This document shows, in pieces, positions 26,356 to 64,000 of a DNA stretch of 64,000 nt. Source of the stretch: a virus; the IMG/VR virus record IMGVR_UViG_3300020182_000020; one strand, 5' to 3'. The number at the start of each line of letters is the position of its first letter. Position 1 is the first letter of the stretch. Both the position numbers and the translations under genes were made by a program. The notes beneath the pieces are model-generated. The model saw only the letters and a list, made by a program, of their open reading frames with translations. It was not told the origin of the DNA and searched no databases.

Positions 26356-27815
26356 CAACTCGGGTAGACAATCTAGAAAAGAGAGAAGAAAAATTTGGTA
26401 AAGCTCGAGAATTAACCGAAGGTGTATCAAGAGACGGGTTTGTTGACGCGACAGGAGAGTACTCTAAAAGAGATTACTTCTATGGCAACTCAATCAACAA
26501 AGCAGCCAAAGGCGAGCAGATCAATAGCCTATTTGCTGGTGGTGGAGACTATGGCGTCTCTACAGAATTTCAGGATCAGAAACCTTCAGAATACCCTCAC
26601 AATAAAGTGTCAGAAACAACTTCTGGTCATATCTGGGAAATAGATGACACTCCTGGAGGTGAACGAATACTTCTTAAGCATCGTTCTGGCGCGGGAATAG
26701 AACTTCGTTCAGACGGTTCTGTTCTATTCTCTACTGTTAATAAAAAGGTAGAAGTCACCGGTGGCGATCACACTGTCATCGTTGAAGGCGAAGGCAATCT
26801 TGTGTACAAAGGCAATCTTAATGTTCGTGTTACTGGCGACTATAATTTGTCAGTTGACGGTAACATAAACATTAAAACTGCAGGCAACAAAAAAGAAGAA
26901 ATTAATGGCAACCATATTAAAACGGTTGATCAGAACCAGAACTATGTTGTCAAAGGGTCAAGGAACTCGCAAGTTGTTGCAACCAACACAGATACTATAC
27001 TTGGGGACAACAACCTACTTGTAAAAGGTGAGCAAAAAAATCTTGTGGAAGGCCCTGCTAAATTTTTTGCTAGTGACATAAAACAAACCGCCAGCGGTGA
27101 ATGGACGGTTTCTGCCAGCATAGCTAATCTTACTGCTATCGATATCTCCATGGTGGGATTAAAAGGAACCATTGGTGGCCAGCTGGTCGATCATTATGGT
27201 AAAATGTTTGGTGGTCCTCCTACTGGATTAGGTAATGGGGGTACAACTTTCTATGGTACTTTGGTCGGTAAAGCACAAGAAGCTATCACAGCAGATTTTG
27301 CTAACATGGCTGGTTATGCTCGAAGAGCTAGAACAGCGAGAGCAGAAAGGGGTTCTGCAGATGGCGCAACGGCCAGCGGGTTTAGAGGATACTATCCTAC
27401 CTTTCAACCATTTGTTCCCGTGCCTCCGACAACAGTTATGCCCAACGCAGCAATTGTTTTACCGTGGCTTACTAAATCTGACTATGCAATTCGCGGTGTG
27501 AAAGTCGACACGACAATTGATGATCCAAATTCGTTACTGTCTAAAATTCTTAAAACAGACGATTATGATAATTTTTTCAACCGAGATCCAACCATACAAG
27601 AGATTAGATCTAAACTACGGTCCAAGAGCGCTTTTGAAAACACCAAGTTCACCGGAAACCTTGTAGCGTCTGGATTACTTAATTCTGAGTTTGCAAATAT
27701 TGTTCCCAAGAAAAGCGGAAGGGCTGAAAAGAAAACACCTTCTTTACGGTTTGGAAACACAGTAATAGGTAACAATCCAGCAGAAACGTTAAGCAAAAGG
27801 TTTAAACCACAATGA
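26352..27815 (+). CDS. gp5 C-terminal part (central spike beta-helix)
   Basis: YPHNKV.ET.SGH..EIDDTPGGERI..KHRSG and V.G.......V.G repeats. Confidence 0.8.
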   Translation: MTTRVDNLEKREEKFGKARELTEGVSRDGFVDATGEYSKRDYFYGNSINKAAKGEQINSLFAGGGDYGVSTEFQDQKPSEYPHNKVSETTSGHIWEIDDTPGGERILLKHRSGAGIELRSDGSVLFSTVNKKVEVTGGDHTVIVEGEGNLVYKGNLNVRVTGDYNLSVDGNINIKTAGNKKEEINGNHIKTVDQNQNYVVKGSRNSQVVATNTDTILGDNNLLVKGEQKNLVEGPAKFFASDIKQTASGEWTVSASIANLTAIDISMVGLKGTIGGQLVDHYGKMFGGPPTGLGNGGTTFYGTLVGKAQEAITADFANMAGYARRARTARAERGSADGATASGFRGYYPTFQPFVPVPPTTVMPNAAIVLPWLTKSDYAIRGVKVDTTIDDPNSLLSKILKTDDYDNFFNRDPTIQEIRSKLRSKSAFENTKFTGNLVASGLLNSEFANIVPKKSGRAEKKTPSLRFGNTVIGNNPAETLSKRFKPQ

Positions 27816-29035
27816 GCACACCAATTTTATTTGGATCACCAAGAGCACAAAAGAATTACATCAGACCTCGATTTGAAGGATTAGCGCCAAGGACAACACC
27901 GATTGGATATAACAAAGACCAATCTGTAGAACGCGCCCCCATTCTTCCACCGCCACCACCGCCCATTGCAACTGGGTATACTGGTTGGTTTCAGAGGACC
28001 GTTGACGGTGTCAACAGCTTCTCCGAAGTATCAATTGAAAATTATATAGCAGCGAGCGACACCATGACAGCGAGTTCAATTAATGTGGCTCCACAAGCTC
28101 CACCTGGATTAGAACCAACATGGGAATCGACGTGGGTGGGCACCTTTTTTGGGACTTCTGCAGTGCAAAACGGTTCTAATACTCATGGATATCTCCATGT
28201 CCGGAGCACGGCCGAGCCGAACTTAAACTTATTTCAAATTCCGCAAATGACATTTTTTGCTTATGCAAATGCAACAACACAAAATAACTTGAATGATATA
28301 GGGCCAGGCAGTGCCACACAGAAACAAGTAGGAGTAAACGACAAGGCTAACGGTTATGGGTTGAGGATTATCGGAGCAGATAATCTAAATAATGCAATTT
28401 TTAATGTGACAAGGTTTCCATTTGCAAGTGATACCTTTACTAACAACGGTAGTGCTGTAGGACAGGTTGTTCCAGGCATAACAGATACAAGCCCAGACAA
28501 CGTGAATGGCAGAAGAGACGCCATGGCTACTCAAGACTTAAACGCGGCTTTTTATGTTGGTGGAACGGGTGCACCTTTTGCTTCGATTATTCCTTTTACA
28601 GGAACTGTTATTAAATTTCCCTTTGCTAATTATGCTGAAGATACGCGCTTGACAGGATTAGACCCTTGGGGACCAAGTCCGTCAGAGGCTTTTCAGGGTA
28701 CTGGTGTTTCTAGCACGACTCATGGTTATTCTCTTGGGGGAGTAGTGATTCCTGTTCCTACAACGAATACAGATGTCATGCAGAAATATCCTTTTACCGC
28801 AGAAGGTGATGTTGGTTCTAGTAACGTTGGAAATCTATCCATAGCGGTGAATAGAGGTCATGGTTCTGCAACAAACTCGACTGGATATCTCTCTGGCGGT
28901 TGGAGTATCGCGCCTCAGTCTACGCCTATACAAACAATACAAGCGTTTCCTTTTGCTAGTGATACTACAACTACAGGAGTAAGCAATATATTAAGGACTC
29001 ATTCGGAATGGGGCAGAGGAACTTCAGAGGCGTAA
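27812..29035 (+). CDS. Kelch-like 'FPFA' repeat protein, paralog of the 54-64 kb array
   Basis: Repeated GY..GG...(R/K)FPFAS; Pro-rich N-terminus. Confidence 0.55.
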   Translation: MSTPILFGSPRAQKNYIRPRFEGLAPRTTPIGYNKDQSVERAPILPPPPPPIATGYTGWFQRTVDGVNSFSEVSIENYIAASDTMTASSINVAPQAPPGLEPTWESTWVGTFFGTSAVQNGSNTHGYLHVRSTAEPNLNLFQIPQMTFFAYANATTQNNLNDIGPGSATQKQVGVNDKANGYGLRIIGADNLNNAIFNVTRFPFASDTFTNNGSAVGQVVPGITDTSPDNVNGRRDAMATQDLNAAFYVGGTGAPFASIIPFTGTVIKFPFANYAEDTRLTGLDPWGPSPSEAFQGTGVSSTTHGYSLGGVVIPVPTTNTDVMQKYPFTAEGDVGSSNVGNLSIAVNRGHGSATNSTGYLSGGWSIAPQSTPIQTIQAFPFASDTTTTGVSNILRTHSEWGRGTSEA

Positions 29036-51000: not shown

Positions 51001-53394
51001 GCGTTAGTAATTAATCTTATCGACTCTGCTTATATTCAATTCCGTCAGATTGATTACCTTGATTCTAGTTTAACAATTAATCTTATCGACTCTGCCTATA
51101 TTCAAGCTCGACAGTCGTTAATTGATTCTTCTTCTATTATTTCTCTTATTGACTCTGCTTATATTCAAGCTCGACAGATTGATTACCTTGATTCTAGTTT
51201 AACAATTCAATTGATTGACTCTGCTTATATTCAAGCTCGACAGTCGTTAGTTGATTCTTCTTCTATTATTTCTCTTATTGACTCCGCGTATATTGTAAAC
51301 AGGTCTACAGATTATATTGAAGCTAGTATTCAAGCTCAAGATTTAGGAGACATTGTTGGCGCTGCTGGATTGTCCGGTCAGTTTTTAACTAGCCTTGGAA
51401 CTGGTGATGGGTCTTGGATTTCAATATCAAGCGTTATTGATTCTGCTTATGTCCAATTAAGACAAGTAGATTTACAACGAGACTCTGCTTTTATTACGAA
51501 TATAATTGACTCGGCTTATATACAAGCTCGTCAATCTTTAGACTCTGATTTAGTTATTGCTCTAGTAGATTCTGATTATGTAAAGGCTAGGCAGACAAAT
51601 TATCTAGATTCTGCTTTAACAATACAACTCATTGATTCTGCTTATATTCAAGCTCGACAATCTTTAGACTCTGACCTAGTTATTGCTCTAATAGATTCTG
51701 CTTATATTCAAGCTCGACAATCTTTAGACTCGGATCTAGTTATTGCTCTAGTGGATTCTGCTTATATTCAAGCTCGACAGTCGTTAATTGATTCTTCTTC
51801 TATTATTTCTCTTATCGATTCTAATTATGTTGTTAATAGATCAGCTGATTACATTGAAGCTAATATTCAAGCTTTAGATTTGGGCGATGTAGTAGGTGCG
51901 GCTGGTTTATCAGGACAGTTTTTAACTAGTCTGGGAACTGGTGATGGTTCTTGGGTTTCTATTACGAATATTATCGACTCTGCATATGTACAATTAAGAC
52001 AAGTAGATTTGCAACGAGACTCTGCTTTTATTGTTAATATAATCGACTCTGCCTATGTTCAAGCTCGTCAATCTTTAGACTCTGATTTAGTTATTGCTCT
52101 AGTGGATTCTGATTACGTTCGAGCCAGAGAATCTATTGATTCTGCTAGGGTAATTACATTAATCGACTCTGCTTATGTTCAAGCTCGTCAATCTTTAGAC
52201 TCTGATTTAGTTATTGCTCTAGTAGATTCTGATTATGTAAAGGCTAGGCAGACAAATTATCTAGATTCTGCCTTATCAATTCAACTTATCGATTCTGATT
52301 ACGTTCGAGCCAGACAGCTTTTAGTTGATTCTGCTTCTATTATAAACCTTGTCGATTCTAATTATGTTGTAAACAGGTCTACAGATTATATTGAAGCTAG
52401 TATTCAATCTTTAGATTTAGGGGACGTGGTTGGCGCAGCTGGATTGTCTGGTCAGTTTTTAACCAGTCTCGGTACAGGCGATGGCTCTTGGGTTTCAATA
52501 TCAAGCGTTATTGATTCTGCTTATGTCCAATTAAGACAAGTAGACTATTTGGATTCTGCGTTATCGATCCAATTAATTGACTCAGCCTATATTCAATTCC
52601 GTCAGATTGATTATCTAGATTCTAGTTTAACGACTCAGCTGATAGACTCTGCTTATATTCAAGCTCGTCAATCTTTAGACTCTGACCTAGTAAATAATTT
52701 AATTGACTCTGCTTACATTCAGGCGCGACAGAAACTTGTAGATTCTGCGTCTATTATAAATCTTGTTGATTCTGCATATATTCAATTAAGACAGATAGAT
52801 TACTTAGACTCTTCATTAACAATTCAATTGATTGACTCTGCATATGTACAAGCTCGACAATCGGTTGATTCTTCTGCTATTATTTCTCTTGTAGATTCTG
52901 CTTATGTTATAAACCGATCCGACGATTATATTGGAGCGCAGATACAGGCACAAGATTTAGGAGACATAGTTGGTGCAGCTGGATTGTCTGGCCAGTACTT
53001 GAGAAGTTTAGGTACAGGAGACGGTGAATGGATTACTATCGCCGCACCGAGTTATATAAACCTAAATTATGATTCATCTATAAATAATGATTCAACGGAT
53101 ATCGTAGTAAGAATGCCAGTTGCAGGTAAAATTACACACTTATCATTGCAGCTTAATGTAGATACGATTTCGGCGGGACAAACCCTAGCATTTAACCTTA
53201 AAAAGAATGGTGTTTTGACAGGAGAATCAATTTCTATTGCAGTTGATTCGGCAGGATCTTTTGGAAATTCTAGTTCTATAACAAATATAAATTTTGTGGC
53301 AAACGATTTGATTGCGGTCAACCTTGTTCCTTCTGGTAGCACTAGTGTTACTTCATTACACAAGGGTTTGATACGTTTATTAGAAAACATATAA
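48007..53394 (+). CDS. Giant Asp-Ser repeat protein, probable segmented trimeric fibre
   Basis: About 120 DS dipeptides (manual count), seven DxGD..G..GQ.L.SLGTGD..W modules, C-terminal beta-sandwich. Confidence 0.65.
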   Translation: MADSDFYGLTRNTWPGTWSPSTEAPIVLDKETRGGLRSIIGSNGDRLEDITGQRLVSGMFVFVEKDYSIDSVGGSIWTLDSVPTTFQSGYYQYKNDSDRNEITGSLQNERQFWSTINLEFDSSDVLALIDSDYIKGFVDSDYIKGFIDSDYIKGFVDSDYIKGFIDSDYIKGFVDSDYIKGFIDSDYIKGFVDSDYIKGFIDSDYLKGFIDSDYIKGFVDSDYIKGFVDSDYVNAFTAVFVDSDYIQARQIFGLDSALTIDLIDSDYIQARQILGGGSGGGIDSALTIQLIDSDYIQARQILGGGSGGGIDSALTIQLIDSDYINARVDAASIPDVLDSSEIINLIGLTVDSDYINARVDAVAGGGIDSALTIQLIDSDYIQARQILGGGSGGIDSALTIQLIDSDYINARVDAVAGGGIDSALTIQLIDSDYIQARQIIGGQGGLDSALTIQLIDSDYINARVDAVAGGGIDSALTIQLIDSAYITLRSENFIDAKIQVLDIGDIVGTNGSVGQILSSLGTGDAQWVNIDSSISNVVDSAFIENIIDSNYIQARQIIGGQGGLDSALTIQLIDSDYINARVDAVAGGGIDSALTIQLIDSDYINARVDAVAGGGIDSALTIQLIDSDYIQARQVDLQRDSAFITNIIDSDYINARVDAVAGGGIDSALTIQLIDSDYIQARQVDLQRDSAFITNIIDSDYINARVDAVTGGGIDSALTIQLIDSAYITLRSENFIDAKIQVLDVGDIVGVNGAAGQILSSLGTGDAEWVSLDSSISNVVDSAFIENIIDSDYIQARQIDLQRDSAFITNIIDSAYIQFRQIDYLDSSLTIQLIDSAYVQARQIDLQRDSAFITNIIDSAYIQFRQIQIDYLDSSLTIQLVDSAYVQARQIDLQRDSAFITNIIDSDYINLRVDATIDSAEVFKIIDSDYITLRSENFIDAKIQVLDVGDIVGVNGAAGQILRSLGTGDAEWVNIDSSIGAVIDSAYINARVNASFDSALVINLIDSAYIQFRQIDYLDSSLTINLIDSAYIQARQSLIDSSSIISLIDSAYIQARQIDYLDSSLTIQLIDSAYIQARQSLVDSSSIISLIDSAYIVNRSTDYIEASIQAQDLGDIVGAAGLSGQFLTSLGTGDGSWISISSVIDSAYVQLRQVDLQRDSAFITNIIDSAYIQARQSLDSDLVIALVDSDYVKARQTNYLDSALTIQLIDSAYIQARQSLDSDLVIALIDSAYIQARQSLDSDLVIALVDSAYIQARQSLIDSSSIISLIDSNYVVNRSADYIEANIQALDLGDVVGAAGLSGQFLTSLGTGDGSWVSITNIIDSAYVQLRQVDLQRDSAFIVNIIDSAYVQARQSLDSDLVIALVDSDYVRARESIDSARVITLIDSAYVQARQSLDSDLVIALVDSDYVKARQTNYLDSALSIQLIDSDYVRARQLLVDSASIINLVDSNYVVNRSTDYIEASIQSLDLGDVVGAAGLSGQFLTSLGTGDGSWVSISSVIDSAYVQLRQVDYLDSALSIQLIDSAYIQFRQIDYLDSSLTTQLIDSAYIQARQSLDSDLVNNLIDSAYIQARQKLVDSASIINLVDSAYIQLRQIDYLDSSLTIQLIDSAYVQARQSVDSSAIISLVDSAYVINRSDDYIGAQIQAQDLGDIVGAAGLSGQYLRSLGTGDGEWITIAAPSYINLNYDSSINNDSTDIVVRMPVAGKITHLSLQLNVDTISAGQTLAFNLKKNGVLTGESISIAVDSAGSFGNSSSITNINFVANDLIAVNLVPSGSTSVTSLHKGLIRLLENI
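48391..48714 (+). repeat. Tandem 27-bp repeat, about 12 copies, encoding (F/L)(I/V)DSDYIKG
   Basis: Visible in sequence and translation; copies differ mostly at synonymous sites. Confidence 0.9.
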
Positions 53395-53397
53395 ATA
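53390..53397 (+). promoter_or_regulatory. T4-type late promoter TATAAATA
   Basis: Exact consensus at the fibre stop codon, ahead of 53436. Confidence 0.7.
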
Positions 53398-53435
53398 ATT
53401 ACGATTATTATATCATAACTTAAGGATAGTAAATA

Positions 53436-54386
53436 ATGAGCAGTACAAAAAAAGATGTATCGACTGAAGTGGCACCTTATGAAGAGGTGATGAAAGAGCT
53501 TGCTTTGATCACAGACAAGCACGAAGTTCATTTACCTGTTTCTAGTATTTTTGGTAGAGGCGAACTTGCTTTAACCAAAAGTTTTGGAGGTAGGACTCTA
53601 GCAGAAAATGCTGAGATGGTAGACAAAGCGTTTGAAAATACAAACGAGTTGCAGAATATTTGGAATCGTTCACATTCGCAATGGGATTGGAAACATATCA
53701 ATCTCTCTTATCATAGTGATTTTAAAAATGTTAGACAGATTGCTGCTGAAATGAGTCGAAAGAAAATGGCTCTTGATGAAGCAAAATGGCGCCAGCTTAA
53801 AAATGAAGTTAAGCTTAAAAAGATGCAAGAGAAATTGGCTTCTGGTAAATTAGACAAATGGAAAGAGATTGATATCAAGATCCAAATTGGCCAGCAATTA
53901 GAAGGTAATGCACAGGGCATGGCGTACATTGAAGGAGCCATGAAAGATGTTCTTGCTCTCAACGAACTTTATGAAGAGATGAAGAACAAATCCGAAATTG
54001 ATGGATTTACAGAAGCAGATTTTGAGAAACAAGAGTCAAAGTCTCATTTAAAAAGAAGCTTGGTCCAATGTATTCGAGACGTGCGACAACAAGGTTCTAT
54101 TACTAAAGGCGAACAAGAATACTTAGAGCAGATTGGTGTCAATCCTACAAAGATGCAAGCAAGAATTCGACAGTATGTTGCTGACGAAGAAGCGTCTTCT
54201 GATTGGTCGACGACTTCTTTGCACGAGTTTGTTGCTGGTGTTGTTGATGAATTGATTGATGTGTTAAAGGTCGACCGTACACGTATGGAACTTATGGGCT
54301 TTAGTGCAGATCATTTAGATTATATTACTCATGACCAATCTGTAGCTCATAAATCTATGCTAGAATATAAATTCGAATCAGAGTAA
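53436..54386 (+). CDS. Conserved coiled-coil hypothetical protein leading the paralog array
   Basis: 316 aa helical; NRSHSQW, RQIAAEMSRKK.AL.E. Confidence 0.6.
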   Translation: MSSTKKDVSTEVAPYEEVMKELALITDKHEVHLPVSSIFGRGELALTKSFGGRTLAENAEMVDKAFENTNELQNIWNRSHSQWDWKHINLSYHSDFKNVRQIAAEMSRKKMALDEAKWRQLKNEVKLKKMQEKLASGKLDKWKEIDIKIQIGQQLEGNAQGMAYIEGAMKDVLALNELYEEMKNKSEIDGFTEADFEKQESKSHLKRSLVQCIRDVRQQGSITKGEQEYLEQIGVNPTKMQARIRQYVADEEASSDWSTTSLHEFVAGVVDELIDVLKVDRTRMELMGFSADHLDYITHDQSVAHKSMLEYKFESE

Positions 54387-54392
54387 AACTCG

Positions 54393-55571
54393 ATGGCTAT
54401 AGATTTAAAAGATGTTTTAATAGAAGTCCAAAAACAGGCGTATGCTGCAGATTCTTCTCAGGATACGCTGGACTTATTTTATCTTTTAAAATCTGCTGTT
54501 AGAGCTGATCAAAATCCATTCAAAGAAGTAAACACCAATCTTGATCTAATTGCAATACCTGTTTTGGACAGATCACCAACAATGTATTATAGCAAAGAAA
54601 ATAAAAATTTATATTTTTCTAAAGATAATGAATGGAGAGCTTTAAAGAAATATATTCCAGATTGGTATGGAACCAATGGCTTGTTTGCTTATGGCGGGGG
54701 AACAGCAACAAATATCGACACGATTGACTATGGATCGTTTGCTACTGATACTAGTCCATTCACAGACATTGGAAGTATGTCAGAGACGAAAAGTTATATG
54801 TCAGCTGCTCGAGATTATTCTAGTAAAGACGCGAGTTATATCATAGGAGGCTTTGCCGGCGGCGCAAAATCAACCATTGAAAAACATGCAAACTCAACAA
54901 GCTCGACTAGTGGGTCTTCTGTTGGAAATTTATCAGTAACCTCCTATAGAAATTCTACGGTGGCTTCTACTACTGACGCATATACTCATTTATCAAATAC
55001 TCCACCGAATCCAACTGTTGTGTCAGCCATCGATAAATTTGCTTTTGGCTCTACCGTTACCGGAGTAGAAGTTGGAGATATGCTTGTGGCGTCACCTACA
55101 AACTTAGGGGTAACGGACGCTGTGAATCAAAAGGGATATTTTAGGAGATTCTCGTCTACTGGTATTGAACTAGAAGTATTCCCTTTCTCTTCTGGCGTAC
55201 CATTTACAACTTCGCTTGTTTCTCCATATGGAGCTACTCTACCTGTCGGGCTTGCAACTGCTGCATTCAGTAATCCAACCCAAGGGTATATTGGTGTAAA
55301 CAACTTGATGGAAAGGTTTAACTTTGGAAACGACGCCAGTGTCGCATATGGAAACCCAACAGCACCTGCGACGACTCGGTTGGATGATGTAGGCGCTGGC
55401 TCTGCCAGCGAGACAAAGGGTTATCTCACTGGGCAAGTGGCATCACCGGCAGGAAATGCAATTATTTCATTACCTTTTGCCAATGACGCAGACACTGGTG
55501 TCATGACACCTGGTGTTTTCTCTCCATCGCCAGCAAACCCTGGGGCGAATTCTGGCGGGTCTCATTTTTAA
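54393..55571 (+). CDS. Array member 1: N-terminal adaptor plus Kelch-like FPF/FAF repeat domain
   Basis: MAIDLKDV...DLFYLL; repeats with GG...I.K(F/H)A. Confidence 0.6.
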   Translation: MAIDLKDVLIEVQKQAYAADSSQDTLDLFYLLKSAVRADQNPFKEVNTNLDLIAIPVLDRSPTMYYSKENKNLYFSKDNEWRALKKYIPDWYGTNGLFAYGGGTATNIDTIDYGSFATDTSPFTDIGSMSETKSYMSAARDYSSKDASYIIGGFAGGAKSTIEKHANSTSSTSGSSVGNLSVTSYRNSTVASTTDAYTHLSNTPPNPTVVSAIDKFAFGSTVTGVEVGDMLVASPTNLGVTDAVNQKGYFRRFSSTGIELEVFPFSSGVPFTTSLVSPYGATLPVGLATAAFSNPTQGYIGVNNLMERFNFGNDASVAYGNPTAPATTRLDDVGAGSASETKGYLTGQVASPAGNAIISLPFANDADTGVMTPGVFSPSPANPGANSGGSHF

Positions 55572-57748
55572 TGACTAAAGATATTAAAAAAGTAATTCTT
55601 GCAACACAAAAAAGAGCTGCGGAAGCAACGGCTTCTACTTCAACAAACGATCTTTTGTATTTGTTATCTGTTGTAGAACGCGGCGTTCAAAACAGTGTTA
55701 TTACTGTTAATAACACTGCAGATTTTTCATCAATAGTCGGCCAAGATTCTCAAATATATTATAACAAAGAAGATAAGAAAATGTATTTTGTAAAAAATAA
55801 TACATTTTTTCTATCAGACGGTACTATCTTCTATCCATTAACGGGTGAAGCAGAATCTATCTTGAACACTACGTGGATCTCCACTTACGCTCCTGCCAGT
55901 TATGTTTGGGATGCAACGCCTGGCGCAGAAGGTATTCGTGTAAAAGCGAACGATCCTATTACGAATATGTATCAGATGTTCTCCAATAGTGCTATAAACA
56001 ATTCTGACATCTCATCTTGGGATGTAAGTAGTGTTACTAATATGACTGCTATGTTCAACCTTGCTACCTCGTTCAATCAAAATATTAGTTCTTGGAATGT
56101 AAGTAATGTTACTGCTATGAATGGTATGTTCAACCAAGCAACCGCGTTTAACCAACCTATCGGATCTTGGATTGTAAGTAACGTTACTAATATGTCGAGT
56201 ATGTTCATCCTTGCTACCTCGTTCAATCAAAATATTGGTTCTTGGAATGTGAGTAATGTTACTAATATGAATGCTATGTTCAAAGGTGCTTCAGCATTTG
56301 ATCAAGACATTAGTGGTTGGGATGTGAGTAGTGTTACTGATATGGTTAATATGTTCAATGGTGCTTCGGTATTTGATCAAGACATTAGTGGTTGGGATGT
56401 GTTGGCTGCTAGTGTTGCTATTGACAATTCAACTCCACCTACAGATTTTGATCTCAACACTAATGCCAGTTGGACAGGCGCAGAAAAACCTCTTTGGGGC
56501 ACAGACGGTACAGGCATCCTGTATCCGTTAAGTAATACTGCCACAGATCCTACTAGTAGTACTTGGAGAACTGCTAATCCAACATATCAGTTCTTTGTAA
56601 ACGTTGGTATCTTAATGCCAGCAGGATCGCCTATTACTAGTATGGATAATATGTTCGCTGTTGCTAGTAATCCATTTAATGACCCTGATATTAGTTCTTG
56701 GGATGTAAGTACTGTTAACAATATGAGCTTTGCGTTCTCCTTGAACAACTCATTCAATCAAGACCTTAGTTCTTGGAATGTGAGTAATGTCACTAAAATG
56801 AATAATATGTTCAACGAGTGTTACGCGTTCAATCAAGACCTTAGTTCTTGGAATACAAGTATTGTTACTGATATGAGTAGTATGTTCTACGACGCTTCTG
56901 TATTCAACAACGGCGGTCAACCTTTAACCACAAACGGGAATCAGTGGAATGTAAGTAATGTTACTAGTATGAATAGAATGTTTGCTACTAGTGGTACAGC
57001 AGCGTTCAATCAGGATATTAGTTCTTGGGATGTAAGTAGTGTTACTGATATGGAATTTATGTTCGCTGGTGCTATTGCGTTTGATCAGAACCTTAATGCT
57101 TGGGACGTTACTAACATACCGTCACTACCATCAAACTTTGCCACAGGCGCTACATTATTCACTGTTGATGAACATCCTATCTGGGGTACGGATGGTATAG
57201 ATTACTTAGTTGATCCAACTTATGGAACTTTGGTTGCTTATTATAACGCTTATGGATATAATAATGCTAACGGATATGAATTGAACGCGGTTGCTTCAAA
57301 CTACATCTCTGCTCTTTCGCCAACTTATGAAAATCGTTATGCAATTGACTCGTATTTTGCTTCTAAAATTGCTGCAGGAACAACAATCACATATGTGTTT
57401 ACTGGTAACTTTTCGACATCTGTACACAGATATGCAATTGCGGATTTGTTAACATGTAATGTAAGAGCGATTAATACTACTACTATTGGTCCTTCTGCGT
57501 TTGCGAATTCCCCGCCTGGGGATAACACTGCGGGTTTGCAAACACATTGGCATCAAGAAACTTCGGGCAACACCTTGAGCGGTGGTGATTATAGTTTTCT
57601 AGCCTTGGGTGATGAAATCGGCGATAATCTTAGAAACTTTTCGACGCACAATTTTCAGGTCGCCCCATTTCCCACTAGCGGCGTGGGTCAGTTTACTCAG
57701 GGTCAGGGTGTTACGGGTTCACCAAAAGTCGCAATATACATTGTATAA
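55571..57748 (+). CDS. Array member 2: same adaptor plus BspA-type/DUF285 repeats
   Basis: 25-aa repeats DISSWDVSSVTNM..MF..A..FNQ in two lobes. Confidence 0.8.
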   Translation: MTKDIKKVILATQKRAAEATASTSTNDLLYLLSVVERGVQNSVITVNNTADFSSIVGQDSQIYYNKEDKKMYFVKNNTFFLSDGTIFYPLTGEAESILNTTWISTYAPASYVWDATPGAEGIRVKANDPITNMYQMFSNSAINNSDISSWDVSSVTNMTAMFNLATSFNQNISSWNVSNVTAMNGMFNQATAFNQPIGSWIVSNVTNMSSMFILATSFNQNIGSWNVSNVTNMNAMFKGASAFDQDISGWDVSSVTDMVNMFNGASVFDQDISGWDVLAASVAIDNSTPPTDFDLNTNASWTGAEKPLWGTDGTGILYPLSNTATDPTSSTWRTANPTYQFFVNVGILMPAGSPITSMDNMFAVASNPFNDPDISSWDVSTVNNMSFAFSLNNSFNQDLSSWNVSNVTKMNNMFNECYAFNQDLSSWNTSIVTDMSSMFYDASVFNNGGQPLTTNGNQWNVSNVTSMNRMFATSGTAAFNQDISSWDVSSVTDMEFMFAGAIAFDQNLNAWDVTNIPSLPSNFATGATLFTVDEHPIWGTDGIDYLVDPTYGTLVAYYNAYGYNNANGYELNAVASNYISALSPTYENRYAIDSYFASKIAAGTTITYVFTGNFSTSVHRYAIADLLTCNVRAINTTTIGPSAFANSPPGDNTAGLQTHWHQETSGNTLSGGDYSFLALGDEIGDNLRNFSTHNFQVAPFPTSGVGQFTQGQGVTGSPKVAIYIV
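56009..56400 (+). repeat. 75-bp tandem repeats encoding DUF285 units (second block about 56690-57110)
   Basis: TCTTGG(A/G)ATGTAAGTA(A/G)TGTTACT(A/G)ATATG...ATGTTC recurring. Confidence 0.85.
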
Positions 57749-57751
57749 ATA
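57744..57751 (+). promoter_or_regulatory. T4-type late promoter TATAAATA
   Basis: Exact consensus overlapping the stop of member 2. Confidence 0.7.
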
Positions 57752-57792
57752 GATGTATTAATAATCTATTTCGCTGCGTTGGAGCAATATTA

Positions 57793-59136
57793 GTGCCACT
57801 CGACTTAAATCAAATAAAAGCAGCTCTACAAGCAAAGATAGACGCGTTGACCGCGAACAGTCCGATGTTGGAAGTATTGCAACTAGAACGGGTGGCGCTA
57901 CCATTTGGTACTACTAAGTATTATGATTCAGACGGAGATCTGCCACCCGCAGTTGATTTTCCAGAGGGCTCTATAGTCTCAACTTATCAGCCCGTTTTAA
58001 CTGGTGCAAGTAAAATATTTATAAACTCAGGAGGTTCTTGGGATACGCTTCAAACCTTAGCTAACGCGTTTGAGGGTCAGGCAAAAAATTGGGGTCAAGA
58101 TACGTTTTACAGTTTAAGCAACCAAAGTGAGGTCAAAATGCCCTTCGCGTCTGCTGGCGCATCATCCGTTACAACATTAACTGGGTTTCGTCCTTCAACT
58201 CCGAACCAACAGAGTATAGTTTTTGCAACTTCTACTTCTTCTGCCACACAAGGGTATGTTTCTGGTGGGCAGATGGTTTCTTTTCCTGGGCCTGGAACGC
58301 CGTATAGCGTCAGTACCATAAAATCTTTTACCTATTCTTCAGAAACTCCTGCTGGTCATACAGGAACATTAACAACTGATCGTAGAAAGTCTTTTGGTTT
58401 TCAATCAATTGCTGGAGGAAAGTCATACCATGGGGGAGGCGAGTATTATGATGATACAACGCCAGTGGGACCTGGAGCGCCAGACGGTTACCAACCTATA
58501 AGTACAATAGAATCCTTTCCTCATGCTTCCCCTGCAACAAACGCTAGTATAATAGGCGACATGTCTTTTGTCCCTGCGCCAAATAGCCCAACAAAGTATT
58601 TTACTCATGGCACTGCCATTAACGCAATAGGCGCAGCATATATTGCCAATTTTCAGGTCAATTATGGTTCGCAGGTTAATATAAACGCGAACGAAATCTA
58701 TAAATTTCCATTTGCTTCTTCTACACCAGTTACTGTCTCTGCTTATGGTGTTATATCAGGACAAGATCCTAATGGTTTGATTCGTTCGAACGACGCTAAT
58801 TGGGCGACATTAGAAAATGGTTATATGGTCGGAGGTTTTCAAAGAGGTTCGTCGACACCGACAGTACCTGTCACAACTAGAATTGATAAATTGCCTTTTT
58901 CTAGCGACACTATTGCATCAGCTTCTCCAGGAACCTTGCCGATTGGGAGAACTAATATGGCTTGCGATAATAACGACGACAAAGGTTATGCAATGATGGG
59001 CCATCAGGGCAGTTATGGGTCTGCAGGCGGCGCGAGTAGTACATATACGTTTGCAACTGATGTTGGATCGTACACATCGCCTAATGGATTAACAAGTCCG
59101 GATTTTAGTGCTAACAACATAGGGTTTTCCGTATAA
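57793..59136 (+). CDS. Array member 3: adaptor plus Kelch-like FPFAS propeller
   Basis: GTG start with GGAG RBS; YYDSDGDLP; repeats GY..GG...I.(K/S)FP(F/H)AS. Confidence 0.65.
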   Translation: MPLDLNQIKAALQAKIDALTANSPMLEVLQLERVALPFGTTKYYDSDGDLPPAVDFPEGSIVSTYQPVLTGASKIFINSGGSWDTLQTLANAFEGQAKNWGQDTFYSLSNQSEVKMPFASAGASSVTTLTGFRPSTPNQQSIVFATSTSSATQGYVSGGQMVSFPGPGTPYSVSTIKSFTYSSETPAGHTGTLTTDRRKSFGFQSIAGGKSYHGGGEYYDDTTPVGPGAPDGYQPISTIESFPHASPATNASIIGDMSFVPAPNSPTKYFTHGTAINAIGAAYIANFQVNYGSQVNINANEIYKFPFASSTPVTVSAYGVISGQDPNGLIRSNDANWATLENGYMVGGFQRGSSTPTVPVTTRIDKLPFSSDTIASASPGTLPIGRTNMACDNNDDKGYAMMGHQGSYGSAGGASSTYTFATDVGSYTSPNGLTSPDFSANNIGFSV

Positions 59137-60473
59137 TGGCTATTGACATATCAATACTGACAGCGGCTCTACAAGCGAAGATAGACGCGTTAGATTCGAA
59201 TAGTGCGATATCTGATATCGTTGCCTTAGAAAGAGCGGCACAACAGTTTGGAACGACTACGTATTATGATTCAGACGGAGATTTACCGGAAGCAACTTAT
59301 TTTCCGAAACAATCTATTGTCTCAACATATAGTCCACCAACAGTAAATGTAGCAAGTAAATTATACATCAATAATTTCGGAACGTGGAAAGAAATACAAA
59401 CGTTCAAAACGCAAGTTGCCTTTCAAGGTTCTGATGCAGGTTATGTGGGTAAAGCGATCGTTGCTCCAATTACGACAGAGTTTGCGAAATTTTCATTCGT
59501 TTCTGAAACAGACACTACTATAGTTGGATCTGTAGCTCCTTCTATGGGTGTTGCAGAAATGGAATCATATCTTGGCGGCGGGTCTAGAGGAGCCTCTAGT
59601 AGAGAAAACGGGTATGTGATAGGAGGAGATCCGCCAAGTTGGTTGGCGCCACCCGCGCCGACTGGCAACCGATCAAACGCAGTAACGCAATATAGTTTTG
59701 CGTCAGAAGTGATTTCTCGAGCAGGGTCGTTGACAGATGATAACGCTGATGGATTTACAGACGGGTATAGTATTTCTGCTTTGGATTATCAAGAGGTTTA
59801 CTTTGGTGGTGGAATAAGAGGCACTCCTTTGCCTGTCCCAGAGCGAGATCAACCTTTAGTCAAATTTCCCACAGCAAACCCTTGGGTTTCCGCTACTGTT
59901 AGCGTAGTCTATTATCCTGCAGGCTCTTATCCGAGCCCGATTACATCTGAGCGCTCACCGATCAATGGAGCTATTGGTATTCCTTCATCTACAACAGGAT
60001 ATGTTGTGGGAGGAAGAATTGGAGGTCCAACTACAACTGTTCCACAGCCAATCGACTTCATGAGTACAAATATTAAATCATTTCCTTTTGCTTCTGCGAC
60101 TCCTCTGGACAATACTCGATCATTAACAACAGGAAAAGCTTTTGCAGCAGGAGTCTCGTCAACGACTAATGGATATGTTGTAGGCGGATATGGACCATTT
60201 CCCTCGGGAAATCCTACGCGCGAAATAATAGAATCGTTTCCTTTTGCAAATCCAGCTGCAAATTCTGTAGATGCAGGAAACTTATCTATTCTAGTTTTTA
60301 AAAGCGCTGGAATGAGTTCAACTACAAAGGGATATTCAGCTGCCGGCGCTGGCGGCACGCCAACTCTTGCAATTCAAAGTTTTCCTTATTCTTCTTTTAC
60401 AACTGCAACGACTGTAGCCAACCTCATTACATCAAATAGTGGTTTTACCAACACTGCGAGTTTTCAACAATGA
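59136..60473 (+). CDS. Array member 4: adaptor plus Kelch-like FPFAS propeller
   Basis: Closest to member 3; SSTT.GYVVGG...I.SFPFAS. Confidence 0.65.
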   Translation: MAIDISILTAALQAKIDALDSNSAISDIVALERAAQQFGTTTYYDSDGDLPEATYFPKQSIVSTYSPPTVNVASKLYINNFGTWKEIQTFKTQVAFQGSDAGYVGKAIVAPITTEFAKFSFVSETDTTIVGSVAPSMGVAEMESYLGGGSRGASSRENGYVIGGDPPSWLAPPAPTGNRSNAVTQYSFASEVISRAGSLTDDNADGFTDGYSISALDYQEVYFGGGIRGTPLPVPERDQPLVKFPTANPWVSATVSVVYYPAGSYPSPITSERSPINGAIGIPSSTTGYVVGGRIGGPTTTVPQPIDFMSTNIKSFPFASATPLDNTRSLTTGKAFAAGVSSTTNGYVVGGYGPFPSGNPTREIIESFPFANPAANSVDAGNLSILVFKSAGMSSTTKGYSAAGAGGTPTLAIQSFPYSSFTTATTVANLITSNSGFTNTASFQQ

Positions 60474-61750
60474 CTATTAATATTAAGAACATTGTTAACA
60501 TTGTTGCAAAAAAGATAACCACAGCAGATTCTGCAGAGGCAGGAAATCTGTTGTTTGGGTATCTTAATATCGCTCAGAGACATGGGCTTGGTCAGATTAA
60601 AGAAGGTTCTGATCCAGGAGCGCCTGTTTTACCATCAGATTTTACTAGTCGCGATCAAGACAGATTACGTTACGTTGGCGATAAACTTTATATTCGTAAG
60701 AACGCTGGTTGGTCTAAACAGTTTGTTACTCAAGAGTTTTTTCAGGGACAAACATCAGGTTATGTTTCTGGTGGTTTTCATAGATTTCCTAATGGCAGCA
60801 GCACATCGCCGAGATCGATTACAGAATTTTCTTTACTTACTGGTAACACAGTAACTGCTGGGCCTTTGATTATGAACAATCCTGGGCCAGCTCCAGGTTT
60901 TATGCCAACCGACAAACAAGTCGGAGTTCCTAATCATACGACAACTGCTTATATTTTCGGCGGTTATGTTCAACCACCATATGGGTATATAACAGATAAT
61001 ATAAACAAGTTTCTTTTTGCAAACCCAAGCACTTATAGTTCCGATATTGCGTCATTAGCTGCAGCCGTAAGCAATAACGCTAGTGCTAGTGACGCTACTG
61101 CTGGATATGTTATGGGCGGTGACGAACTACCAACTCCACCAAATCAGAATCAATCGCAGCAGGTGCAAAAGTTCATTTTTGCGAGCGAAACTCCTGCAAC
61201 TGTATCTACGACTTTAACCCTCCCAGTGCGGCAGAATGGTGGGCATTCATCTGATGTCAATGGGTATAGTGCTGCTGGTTTTTCATTCTTCCCAGGTCCA
61301 GGTAATGTAGGAAGAGTTGATGGGTTTCCTTTTGCGTCTCCAGGTGGTACATTTGTAGCACAAACTCCTGAATTGTCGCCGACCAGTGGCAAGTGTTCCA
61401 TCAGTAGTTTTACTCATGGATATCTCATCGGCGGGGTGATTTCCACTCCAACTCCAATATACGTCGCTCAGAAATATTCGTTTGCAAACAACACCCCAGT
61501 TACTACATTTCCATATTTTTTAAATACTTATACGGATGCAACTGGGATTTCTGGAGAAAATGAAGGTTTTTATGCAGGTGGGGCAGTTGTTGTTACTCCC
61601 ACATCGCCGTTTCCAAACTCTGGGCCGGTCAGTGGATATATACAAAAGTTTCCATACGCGAGCGAAGTAATTGTTAATCATGCAAATATGACCCAAAGCG
61701 GCGACTCATTAGCAACAAATGGTAAACAAATGGCAGGGAATCAAAGATAG
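60470..61750 (+). CDS. Array member 5: adaptor plus Kelch-like propeller
   Basis: MTINIKNIVNIVAKK; GY..GG...KF.FA repeats. Confidence 0.65.
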   Translation: MTINIKNIVNIVAKKITTADSAEAGNLLFGYLNIAQRHGLGQIKEGSDPGAPVLPSDFTSRDQDRLRYVGDKLYIRKNAGWSKQFVTQEFFQGQTSGYVSGGFHRFPNGSSTSPRSITEFSLLTGNTVTAGPLIMNNPGPAPGFMPTDKQVGVPNHTTTAYIFGGYVQPPYGYITDNINKFLFANPSTYSSDIASLAAAVSNNASASDATAGYVMGGDELPTPPNQNQSQQVQKFIFASETPATVSTTLTLPVRQNGGHSSDVNGYSAAGFSFFPGPGNVGRVDGFPFASPGGTFVAQTPELSPTSGKCSISSFTHGYLIGGVISTPTPIYVAQKYSFANNTPVTTFPYFLNTYTDATGISGENEGFYAGGAVVVTPTSPFPNSGPVSGYIQKFPYASEVIVNHANMTQSGDSLATNGKQMAGNQR

Positions 61751-61758
61751 ATATACTA

Positions 61759-63021
61759 ATGACTATTAATATTAAAAACATTATTAACATTGTAGCAAAG
61801 AAAGCGCACCTTGCTGACTCTAGCGAATCTGCGAATTCTTTGTCTAGCTATTTAAATATTTTACAAAGGCAAGGGAAAGGTCTTGCAAAAGTATATTCTT
61901 CCTTACCGAATCTTGTAAACGAAGGGTTTGACGATCAAGACAGACTTGCAATTGTTAACGGTATATTACACTTGCGTAAAAATGCTGGTTGGTATGGTGG
62001 TCCTGGTGGACCTTTTCAGGGATCGAATTATGGATTTTCTGTTTTTAGAAAAGATACTAATCCAGGAACTTCTGAACTTGAAAGATTTCCTTTTGCTAGC
62101 ACTGTTACTTCAGTCAATTTTGCTTCAATAGGAACTACTCCAGGATCTCCGTTCTCTAGCGCAAAATCAAGAGTTGGTGGGGGAATTAGTGATCCCTCAA
62201 CCACTAATGGTTATCAAACAGGTGGCCAGCCGCCAGGCGCGCCGAATGGAAACGTTGACATTTTTAAGTTTAATATGACTACTGGTACGCCTGTTGTTGT
62301 TTATGGTGGAACATTAACAGTAGGAAGATATAGCATCTGTAATCATTCAGACACAGAAAACGCACAAGGATTTACTTCGGGAGGTCGTGAGGTATCTGGA
62401 CCCCCGAACCCTACGCCTTATAGCACTGTCTGTGAAAAATTTTCGTTTACATCAGAAGCACCCGTTACTGATGTTGGTAATCTTTCTTCTGGAAGAATAC
62501 GAGGTACAGGAATAACAGATAACACTAACGGTCGCGCATATTCTATTGGCGGTCAAGCGTTAACTCAACCGTTGGCCCTTGCACAGACAGTCGATCAGTT
62601 CCCTTTTGCGTCTCCGTTTACTACAGCCACAGATATTGGAGATATTGGAGGAACCGGTGTGGTATGGGGGTTCGGTGGGAGTTCGCTTCAGAACGGATAT
62701 GTCGGAGGGGGAAATTATGGTACTCCGAACAATGCAAACGGATATTTGAGTAGATTTCCTTTTTCGGCACCATTTACAACTTCTACTCAAACAGGCAATT
62801 TATTACAGAAAACAGTAGCTAGCACTACTTCGTGTTCGATAACTGATATGTATATTACTGGCGGTTGGGCAGCTTCAGATCCAGTTGGTGGGGCGACACA
62901 ATATTCTAGCATTGACAAGTTTTCTTTTGCGAGTGAAAATCCTACTGTTAGTGTGGCTACTATTTCTCCTGTTGCTCAAGCACAGACTCCCGTATCGCAT
63001 GGATCAGGTCACCAATACTAA
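61759..63021 (+). CDS. Array member 6: adaptor plus Kelch-like propeller
   Basis: MTINIKNIINIVAKK; FPFAS repeats. Confidence 0.65.
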   Translation: MTINIKNIINIVAKKAHLADSSESANSLSSYLNILQRQGKGLAKVYSSLPNLVNEGFDDQDRLAIVNGILHLRKNAGWYGGPGGPFQGSNYGFSVFRKDTNPGTSELERFPFASTVTSVNFASIGTTPGSPFSSAKSRVGGGISDPSTTNGYQTGGQPPGAPNGNVDIFKFNMTTGTPVVVYGGTLTVGRYSICNHSDTENAQGFTSGGREVSGPPNPTPYSTVCEKFSFTSEAPVTDVGNLSSGRIRGTGITDNTNGRAYSIGGQALTQPLALAQTVDQFPFASPFTTATDIGDIGGTGVVWGFGGSSLQNGYVGGGNYGTPNNANGYLSRFPFSAPFTTSTQTGNLLQKTVASTTSCSITDMYITGGWAASDPVGGATQYSSIDKFSFASENPTVSVATISPVAQAQTPVSHGSGHQY

Positions 63022-64000
63022 TGGCTATTAACATACAAAAATTAATAAATGCTTTGGAAGCCAAAATAAATGCGGCATCACCCACTTTGCCTGCAGTAGA
63101 GCTTGGTCGTTTGACCCGCGCAAATCGTGTTTTAAATGAAGTTAATAGTGTCATAGATTATGAAACTACTGATCAATTACCTGAAGCGACACAATACAAT
63201 CAGGGTAGAATACTTTGGAATGCTGAAACTCAAAACTATGTTGTGAACTCTTTAGGTACTTGGAAGAATATTGAACTTGATCCGGATATATTAAAAGTTC
63301 CTTATGTTGGTTATGATAACGCGTTCCACGTTGGTGGCAGCGCTGAGCCTGCTGGAACTAACGAGACCGTAGATAAATTTGCTTACGCGTCTGATGTGAT
63401 AACACAATCTTTTACAACAATACCATCAGGGACATATTATAGTACATCTGCCGGAGGTGGTCTTTCTTCTGAAACTGAAGGTTATGCTGTTGGAGGTTCG
63501 AAATTTTCTTTAGGAACTCCAGGAAGCTTTGGGGGTCGAAGATTGTCTAAATTTAATTTTTCTAGTGGAGCAGCGACTGGATTTCCTACGACATATAATC
63601 CGGTCAGCGTGAAAGGCGGTCCAACCGCTTCTTCAAAAATTGATGGATATGGGTTTATAGGAGCGGGATCGGTTTCCCCATCAGGTTCACCGCAAACAAA
63701 ACAAAAATTAGCTTTTGCGAGCGATGCGTTTAGCGCTTCAGGAACTGCTACTCCCATACAAATTGAATCAGGATCAGGCTGTCAATCGTCAACTTTTGGA
63801 TATGAAGTTGGCGGTAGGTACAATAGTGCTCCGCCAGCCACGCCTCATTCTCAAGCAATAAGAAAATATCCCTTTGCTAATGATGGTAATCCTGTTCAAA
63901 TTACAACTTCTTTGTCAATTTATCCAAATGGGTTGGCGCAAACGGCAGGAACTCAAGGGCCTGATGGTGCTGGTTATTTGTTGGGCGGGGATACAACCCA
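63021..64000 (+). CDS. Array member 7 (3'-truncated; not in ORF track): adaptor plus Kelch-like propeller
   Basis: TAATG-coupled ATG at 63021, MAINIQKLINALEAKINA..., frame open to the window end; KFAYAS, KYPFAND. Confidence 0.7.
   Translation, partial: MAINIQKLINALEAKINAASPTLPAVELGRLTRANRVLNEVNSVIDYETTDQLPEATQYNQGRILWNAETQNYVVNSLGTWKNIELDPDILKVPYVGYDNAFHVGGSAEPAGTNETVDKFAYASDVITQSFTTIPSGTYYSTSAGGGLSSETEGYAVGGSKFSLGTPGSFGGRRLSKFNFSSGAATGFPTTYNPVSVKGGPTASSKIDGYGFIGAGSVSPSGSPQTKQKLAFASDAFSASGTATPIQIESGSGCQSSTFGYEVGGRYNSAPPATPHSQAIRKYPFANDGNPVQITTSLSIYPNGLAQTAGTQGPDGAGYLLGGDTT

Follow-up and report, generated by a model that had tools for sequence, protein, structure and literature searches.

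What is the function of a long run of tandem genes that start alike and end differently in a virus known from metagenomes? The question is raised by IMG/VR virus record IMGVR_UViG_3300020182_000020, of which one stretch of 64,000 nucleotides (nt), referred to here as the window, was analysed; the window belongs to a T4-like marine myophage that has not been cultured. A preliminary description had noted at least seven such genes at 54393-64000, in an array running off the end of the window, and these open reading frames (ORFs) are present as described. They open a series of twelve tandem paralogues, as is seen from near-identical contigs of the same phage, which complete g7 and continue past the window with five more members, g8 to g12. 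Metagenome contigs of the window phage show 1-2 mismatches across the 9.6 kb array region. The genes are modular, as had been proposed, with an N-terminal module, referred to as the anchor, followed by one of several exchangeable heads (a propeller, DUF285 repeats or a predicted SPRY-like domain). The best explanation of the array, and one that is reasonably probable, is that it encodes twelve late-expressed, virion-attached host-recognition proteins. Its members are the following.

54393..55571, plus strand: g1 (392 amino acids, aa), anchor (about 54393-54677) and divergent propeller
55571..57748, plus strand: g2 (725 aa), anchor (about 55571-55825) and two DUF285 repeat blocks
57793..59136, plus strand: g3 (447 aa, GTG start), anchor and propeller
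59136..60473, plus strand: g4 (445 aa), anchor (59136-59429) and predicted six-bladed Kelch-like propeller
60470..61750, plus strand: g5 (426 aa), anchor and propeller
61759..63021, plus strand: g6 (420 aa), anchor and propeller with six blade hits
63021..64000, plus strand: g7 (427 aa in full; the window end cuts the gene), anchor and propeller
L007:5832-12651, beyond the window: g8, g9, g10, g11 and g12 (277, 660, 433, 425 and 457 aa, respectively)

The anchor comprises ~90 aa and is homologous in all twelve members. In pairwise BLASTP comparisons of the first 100 aa, g1 matches g2 (E value 2e-15), g3 matches g4 (2e-34), g5 matches g6 (1e-10), and g3 and g4 match g7 (1e-7 to 1e-9). When hidden Markov models (HMMs) of the same 100 aa were built with one pair left out, the left-out members were recovered at their N-terminus with scores of 14.6-35, against 6.6-13.2 for the highest-scoring of 2000 shuffled family proteins; g2 was marginal in this comparison (10.1 versus 9.0 shuffled), yet it is tied to g1 by the pairwise match. 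The common N-terminus of the preliminary description is thus borne out, as are its sub-pairs (1+2, 3+4 and 5+6), for which there is modest DNA similarity at the 5' ends (78% over 49 nt, 73% over 170 nt and 91% over 44 nt, respectively). Among all six-frame ORFs of the window, an anchor HMM matches the seven array ORFs only, and those seven are also its training set. A 52-sequence alignment gives the consensus M.I.I..I...L..K..A.DS ... YDS.G.LP...G....Y....W, which in the AlphaFold2 model of g4 is predicted to form two helices and then three strands (predicted local distance difference test, pLDDT, 60-80). For any oligomer that the anchor may form, a three-copy complex prediction (score 0.00, pLDDT <50) is evidence neither way. 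The twelve anchors belong to six diverged subtypes with 25-35% identity between subtypes, and each subtype is kept between phages at 54-78% identity. In g9 a domain of ~210 aa is inserted between the N-terminal helix and the anchor's second half, which here takes up residues about 260-320; the insert of this gene (L007:6684-8666) is beta-helix-like by eye and is followed by the anchor second half and a propeller.

The anchor has no match in Pfam, PHROG or NCBIfam. A PDB sequence search with its profile gave no significant match (the best, at E 0.045, was an S-layer protein), and a tblastn search with the g7 anchor and g3 against 50,697 phage records, like a megablast search of the region against the same records, gave none. 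Consequently the earlier remark that no characterised family accounts for this system holds for the anchor, for which Pfam and PHROG have no model, but not for the kind of system, since phages with several receptor-binding proteins (RBPs) built from anchors and heads are well known.

Ten of the twelve members carry ~50-aa blades of the form GY.GG ... I.KFPFAS ... G.L, detected with a blade HMM built from relatives, and the same HMM confirms the blade repeats that had been noted in six of the seven window genes. That these blades resemble Kelch blades, also noted before, is supported by the AlphaFold2 model of g4 (pLDDT 77, predicted template modelling score 0.75), in which 24 strands after residue 100 are predicted to form a six-blade propeller. 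The closest Foldseek matches of this model in the PDB are KLHL12, KLHL17 and Keap1 (E 5e-16 and below, target TM score 0.81-0.88, 11-13% identity); these best fold matches are ubiquitin-ligase substrate adaptors, and poxvirus BTB-Kelch proteins are also among the fold matches. The DUF285 of g2 aside, the seven window proteins match no Pfam family at E <= 0.1, Kelch included, and one relative, P0010, reaches Kelch_3 with E 0.002 and 18.7 bits, below the cut-off of 22. Since no Pfam Kelch model reaches threshold, the head is Kelch-like by fold, and membership by sequence is not established. The array proteins likewise have no PHROG match at E <= 0.01; P0010 matches phrog_19111, a marine-phage FPFAS propeller family annotated as of unknown function, at 3.7e-19.

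The two remaining heads are of other types. That of g2 matches DUF285 (PF03382) in four stretches with E 1.7e-103 and 341 bits, above the gathering score. At the DNA level this region (window 55900-57300) has a 75-nt period with at least 10 copies and draws very many unrelated metagenome and metatranscriptome contigs; because the repeats attract foreign contigs, read joints there are uninformative. The head of g8 is predicted to be a SPRY-like sandwich, with a VIA-align Z score of 13.4 and a root-mean-square deviation of 3.1 Å over 151 residues against the SPRY domain of DDX1, and with SPRY domains in all of the top 14 matches. The model itself is moderate (overall pLDDT 56, 70-87 across most of the head), and the Pfam SPRY match is weak (E 0.013, 16 bits versus a cut-off of 26.3). 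Heads of the g8 type are found elsewhere behind a different short N-terminus.

The wider use of the two modules connects them with tail fibres. Among 1.84 billion proteins, the anchor profile matches 827 cluster representatives, 265 of them at E <= 1e-10, and most of the matches are anchor-plus-propeller proteins of ~380-450 aa. The full anchor also starts proteins of 529-1291 aa with other C-termini; in one of these, P0130, it is joined to a tail-fibre module (PHROG 9729, E 1e-26) matching annotated tail-fibre genes of the cyanomyophages S-RSM4, ACG-2014e and S-CAM4. Long tail-fibre proteins contain 5-16 tandem copies of the anchor's second half (P0054 with PHROG 892, E 6e-30; P0049 with DUF2793, 3e-18), and the motif of its predicted beta unit, DS.G.LP...G....lY...g.W..i, is also the repeat unit of many phage tail-fibre shafts. 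The propeller family is found elsewhere behind tail-fibre N-termini, PT-rich linkers and other domains. Within the window there is, in addition, one propeller without an anchor, which may be a spike-associated adhesin.

27812..29035, plus strand: orphan propeller without anchor, directly after the gp5 beta-helix gene; phrog_19111, E 5e-5

Relatives of the locus were gathered from IMG/VR with a neighbouring gene, p316, as bait; this gene is found in 68 loci.

53436..54386, plus strand: p316 (316 aa, helical), a conserved gene always before the array

The close relatives have arrays of 9-13 anchor-bearing genes, some of which have FG-GAP heads. Distant relatives with p316 have tandem propellers behind other common N-termini, including a ~45-aa MAIKIY.D.IE type, against which the anchor profile gives no significant match; one of them, L025, has five tandem propeller paralogues with a true Mtd_N domain (E 6e-12). 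In phage L010, a 500-aa FG-GAP protein has the anchor second-half motif at its C-terminus.

Comparison with these relatives shows that heads are exchanged, by three independent observations. In the variant L084, whose flanks are 89-93% identical to the window, g4 continues from codon ~94 (breakpoint about 59417) into a different propeller. In L010, a g6-type head (76% identity) stands behind a g7/g8-type anchor. Finally, between the window phage and L010 the synonymous divergence (dS) is 1.3 for p316; that of the anchors is 0.8 in g4 and 1.2 in g5 (1.16), and that of the heads is 0.04 and 0.08, respectively. At the DNA level the g5 head is 93.6% identical to that of L010 and the backbone 77-80%; judged from sequence, this head was recently common to the two phages. 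After its new g4 head, L084 has a 55-aa remnant ORF, in which an anchor start is joined to the last 34 residues of g4. Counting this one (L084:2801-2968), anchor-only ORFs of 55-120 aa lie between full-length members in L016, L017, L018, L020 and L084, and such short ORFs are probably recombination remnants.

Duplication within the array is seen in g7 and g8, which have 108 nt in common at 93.5% identity, and in the junction of the g6 end and g7 start, a copy of which precedes g9. In 53400-64000 and in L007:4500-15000, neither inverted repeats nor long, nearly identical pairs of direct repeats of the kind left by a diversity-generating retroelement (DGR) were found, although no search for a reverse transcriptase was made. 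The proposal that diversity arose by duplication rather than by a DGR or an invertase is therefore upheld, with recombination added to it: there are no inverted or template/variable repeats, and head swaps are seen. Orthologues are under purifying selection, with ratios of nonsynonymous to synonymous divergence (dN/dS) of 0.16-0.42, and heads, at 0.17-0.68, have higher ratios than anchors, at 0.09-0.24 or, in g5, 0.30-0.40.

The array sits inside a late structural operon, between VrlC and the neck and terminase genes. On its 5' side are gp5-like hub pieces, gp25, gp6, a gp7-like wedge protein, a 1799-aa VrlC/DUF4815 protein and a gp10-like wedge protein; on its 3' side, following g12 on the L007 contig, are genes for a sulfotransferase, a 2OG-Fe(II) oxygenase, a 126-aa protein, the large terminase, sheath, tube and portal. 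The interval from VrlC to gp14 is described as the host recognition cluster of pelagi- and cyanomyophages (PMC7029224), and the array has the same position. By tblastn, gp13 and gp14 were not found in the window or in the 10 kb past g12, where a gp16-like protein precedes the terminase, unlike in relatives, where gp13/gp14 come after the array. Directly 5' of p316, at window 48007-53394, lies a gene for a 1795-aa acidic protein, a candidate long fibre, with dozens of short IDSDYI/LDSALTIQL-type repeats and seven G..GQ.L.S.G.G...W modules. Judged by the large terminase, Phage C48C1 (74.6%; Kyanoviridae) is closest among isolates, with cyanomyophages at 47%; a search of Phage C48C1 for the array family found no member. 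The lineage itself occurs, near-identical, in marine and estuary metagenomes of >10 studies.

The preliminary description had the array split into units by late promoters, and T4-type late promoter motifs are indeed present before p316 and before g3.

53390..53397, plus strand: T4-type late promoter motif TATAAATA, 39 nt 5' of p316
57744..57751, plus strand: T4-type late promoter motif TATAAATA, in the 44-nt gap before g3

The motif occurs 8 times in the window versus 5.4 expected, and so is not enriched overall; 7 of the 8 copies are on the coding strand, and five of these (20352, 29620, 43235, 53390 and 57744) lie just 5' of ORF starts. A further copy precedes g11. Translational coupling, which had also been claimed, is consistent with the stop/start overlaps (TAATG or ATGA) at four window junctions, g1/g2, g3/g4, g4/g5 and g6/g7; overlaps of this kind make up the majority of the junctions. 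In two RNA (metatranscriptome) libraries there are contigs that agree exactly with parts of g5 and with the g5/g6 junction, which is weak evidence and not proof of transcription.

Taken together, the late-operon context, the fibre-type anchor and the fusion of both modules to tail-fibre segments make a virion-borne role in host recognition the best explanation. The earlier suggestion of receptor-binding heads on the virion is, to this extent, favoured: the late operon, the fusion of anchor and tail-fibre module in P0130 and the Mtd_N propellers of L025 all point to it. The anchor would serve for attachment to the tail, baseplate or neck, and the head (ten propellers, one DUF285 and one SPRY-like) would bind a cell-surface receptor. 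Most probably, the six anchor subtypes would either direct their proteins to separate positions or form a branched, hierarchical structure, and many heads would thereby be on display at once. Two processes change the set of genes over time: members are duplicated in tandem, and homologous recombination, within the anchor or where anchor and head meet, carries heads from one paralogue or phage to another.

Several points weigh against host recognition from the virion. The array proteins match no Pfam or PHROG tail family, and in particular have no gp10-like XD branching domains and no baseplate-wedge or tailspike families in these databases. The anchor is found in no cultured phage among the 50,697 phage records, and the propeller family, among isolates, only in S-SKS1 (NC_020851), a Synechococcus siphovirus. 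When compared with Mtd_N-type N-termini, the anchor profile gives an hhalign probability of 1.35%, which is not significant. The presence of any member in virions is deduced from genes, and the analysis brought out no docking partner for the anchor. The predicted Kelch-like fold is uninformative on the ligand. Lastly, twelve fibres on one six-fold baseplate would require a branched or multi-site architecture, of which no component was identified.

This last point bears on how the proteins would be arranged. A bold form of the host-recognition reading, itself doubtful, is that a single composite adsorption organelle carries all heads simultaneously; they might, for instance, branch off sideways from the 1795-aa DS-repeat fibre or sit on a collar made of p316, with anchor subtypes setting positions and heads hot-swapped between co-infecting phages at the anchor joint. 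Competition for one docking site, as first proposed, is neither supported nor refuted by the data and is unlikely. It would have the twelve anchors bind the same few virion sites, so that each particle carries a random subset of heads and a burst has mixed specificity (bet-hedging). Such an arrangement would suit the few six-fold sites of a T4-type baseplate and the presence in every member of one homologous anchor, whose N-terminal helix (M.I.I..I...L..K..A.DS) is strongly conserved across paralogues and phages. However, the anchors comprise six subtypes that are only as similar as given above, each conserved between phages and under stronger purifying selection than the heads, as is expected of distinct partners; position-specific docking thus fits at least as well as competition. 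In addition, the many-RBP phages RaK2 and CBA120 show all of their RBPs at once on branched complexes, according to published accounts (PMC10253068, PMC7506556).

A serious rival, although again an improbable one, concerns location: the proteins may be decorations of the neck, collar, whiskers or capsid that give weak multivalent adhesion, like the fibritin whiskers or Hoc of T4. The point at which relatives have the array inserted is precisely between p316 and gp13/gp14, and in L055 p316 lies directly before gp13, the position of wac in the T4 gene order; it is this placement that makes the neck or collar a serious candidate. The helical p316 is also far more conserved than the array, with 57-91% identity in relatives and, between the window phage and L010, a dN/dS of 0.04 at a dS of 1.3. 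It has no match in Pfam, PHROG or NCBIfam or, by tblastn, among the isolates of the phage records, and the ESM Atlas gave no usable hit. As a dedicated partner of the array p316 was rejected, the anchor being present in only four of the 68 p316 loci (those with the closest p316, 66-74% identity). Against a neck location, anchor and propeller are fused to tail-fibre modules and not to head or neck proteins, and the orphan propeller adjoins the gp5 spike genes. All cyano- and pelagimyophage tail-fibre genes are also found in the interval from VrlC to gp14 (PMC7029224). A non-structural role as intracellular or released Kelch/SPRY/leucine-rich-repeat-like adaptors that bind host proteins is suggested by modules that are classic for protein-protein interaction, by top PDB matches to ubiquitin-ligase substrate adaptors and by a common N-terminal adaptor in a multigene family that recalls the poxvirus BTB-Kelch genes, but it is very improbable given the late structural operon with its late-promoter motifs, the lack of a BTB or other effector-type N-terminus and the fusion of the same modules to tail-fibre segments.

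If the proteins do serve host recognition on the virion, they would join a known class. Branched multi-RBP complexes are described for Alcyoneusvirus RaK2/phiK64-1 (ten tail-fibre proteins), for the Ackermannviridae phage CBA120 (TSP1-4) and for the Klebsiella podophages KP32/K11 (PMC10253068, PMC7506556, PMC11414711, PMC6872550, PMC13352976). Like the array genes, these encode RBPs in tandem, each with a module for attachment at its N-terminus and an exchangeable one for specificity at its C-terminus, and their host range evolves through the exchange of modules. They differ in that here one ~90-aa anchor without a match in the phage records is present in all twelve proteins, the heads are Kelch-like, DUF285 or SPRY-like by prediction rather than beta-helix depolymerases, and no gp10-like XD domains are detected. 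The same hypervariable island is known from Zaragoza-Solas et al. 2020 (PMC7029224) as the host recognition cluster of pelagi- and cyanomyophages, with tail fibres and carbohydrate-binding structural proteins that include Mtd-domain proteins; the account describes the island in general, and the passages searched contain neither the wording "paralog" or "propeller" nor a tandem family with a common anchor.

Other systems resemble the array in part. The Mtd protein of the Bordetella phage BPP-1 (Mtd_N, PF18454) also has a small N-terminal attachment domain that carries a variable receptor-binding head; unlike in Mtd with its DGR, there are no DGR-type repeats here, diversity comes from gene number and head exchange, and the anchor is not significantly Mtd_N-like. 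In Gp45 of the Staphylococcus phage phi11, a beta-propeller is the sugar-binding receptor-recognition domain of a baseplate protein, but it has five blades, belongs to an unrelated family and is encoded by a single gene (PMC4901313). Poxvirus BTB-Kelch paralogues have a docking domain in common at the N-terminus and owe their specificity to a six-bladed Kelch head; their N-terminus is BTB and they are intracellular ubiquitin-ligase adaptors of a eukaryotic virus, so that the likeness is an analogy only.

The closest parallel for the heads is in S-SKS1, the only carrier of the propeller family among the phage records. It has about 5-6 tandem propeller copies by baseplate and tail-fibre genes, near a sulfotransferase and 2OG oxygenases, but it is a siphovirus, its copies are without the array anchor, and all are annotated as hypothetical. 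The S-SKS1 propellers are interleaved with the sulfotransferase and 2OG-Fe(II) oxygenases (201-208 kb and 1-2 kb), and the sulfotransferases of the myophage array (L007:12695-14850 region) and of S-SKS1 are homologous (30% identity, E 7e-25). In the relatives L009 and L012, a 2OG-FeII_Oxy_3 gene lies just 5' of p316. The co-occurrence of these enzymes with propeller arrays may reflect post-translational modification of the heads.

Phages with several RBPs, each built from an attachment module at the N-terminus and a head that can be swapped, are thus already known from RaK2, CBA120 and the KP32 group; what is new here is two protein classes, that of the anchor and that of the Kelch-like heads, together with the number of copies in a marine T4-like lineage and the evidence, at the level of populations, that heads are traded. 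Little is known of how uncultured marine T4-like phages recognise their hosts, and a family of 9-13 anchor-plus-head copies provides a searchable virome marker for host-range determinants. The array is also a case of natural module exchange with mapped breakpoints, and it offers two targets for structural work, the anchor, which neither Pfam nor PHROG models, and the FPFAS Kelch-like head, whose sole entry is PHROG 19111. Moreover, it hints at a possible tie between the heads and phage sulfotransferase and 2OG oxygenase genes. If the composite organelle were real, an abundant ocean phage lineage would carry a natural plug-and-play receptor library, built from an anchor fold and a Kelch-like head class that would both be new to solved phage structures.

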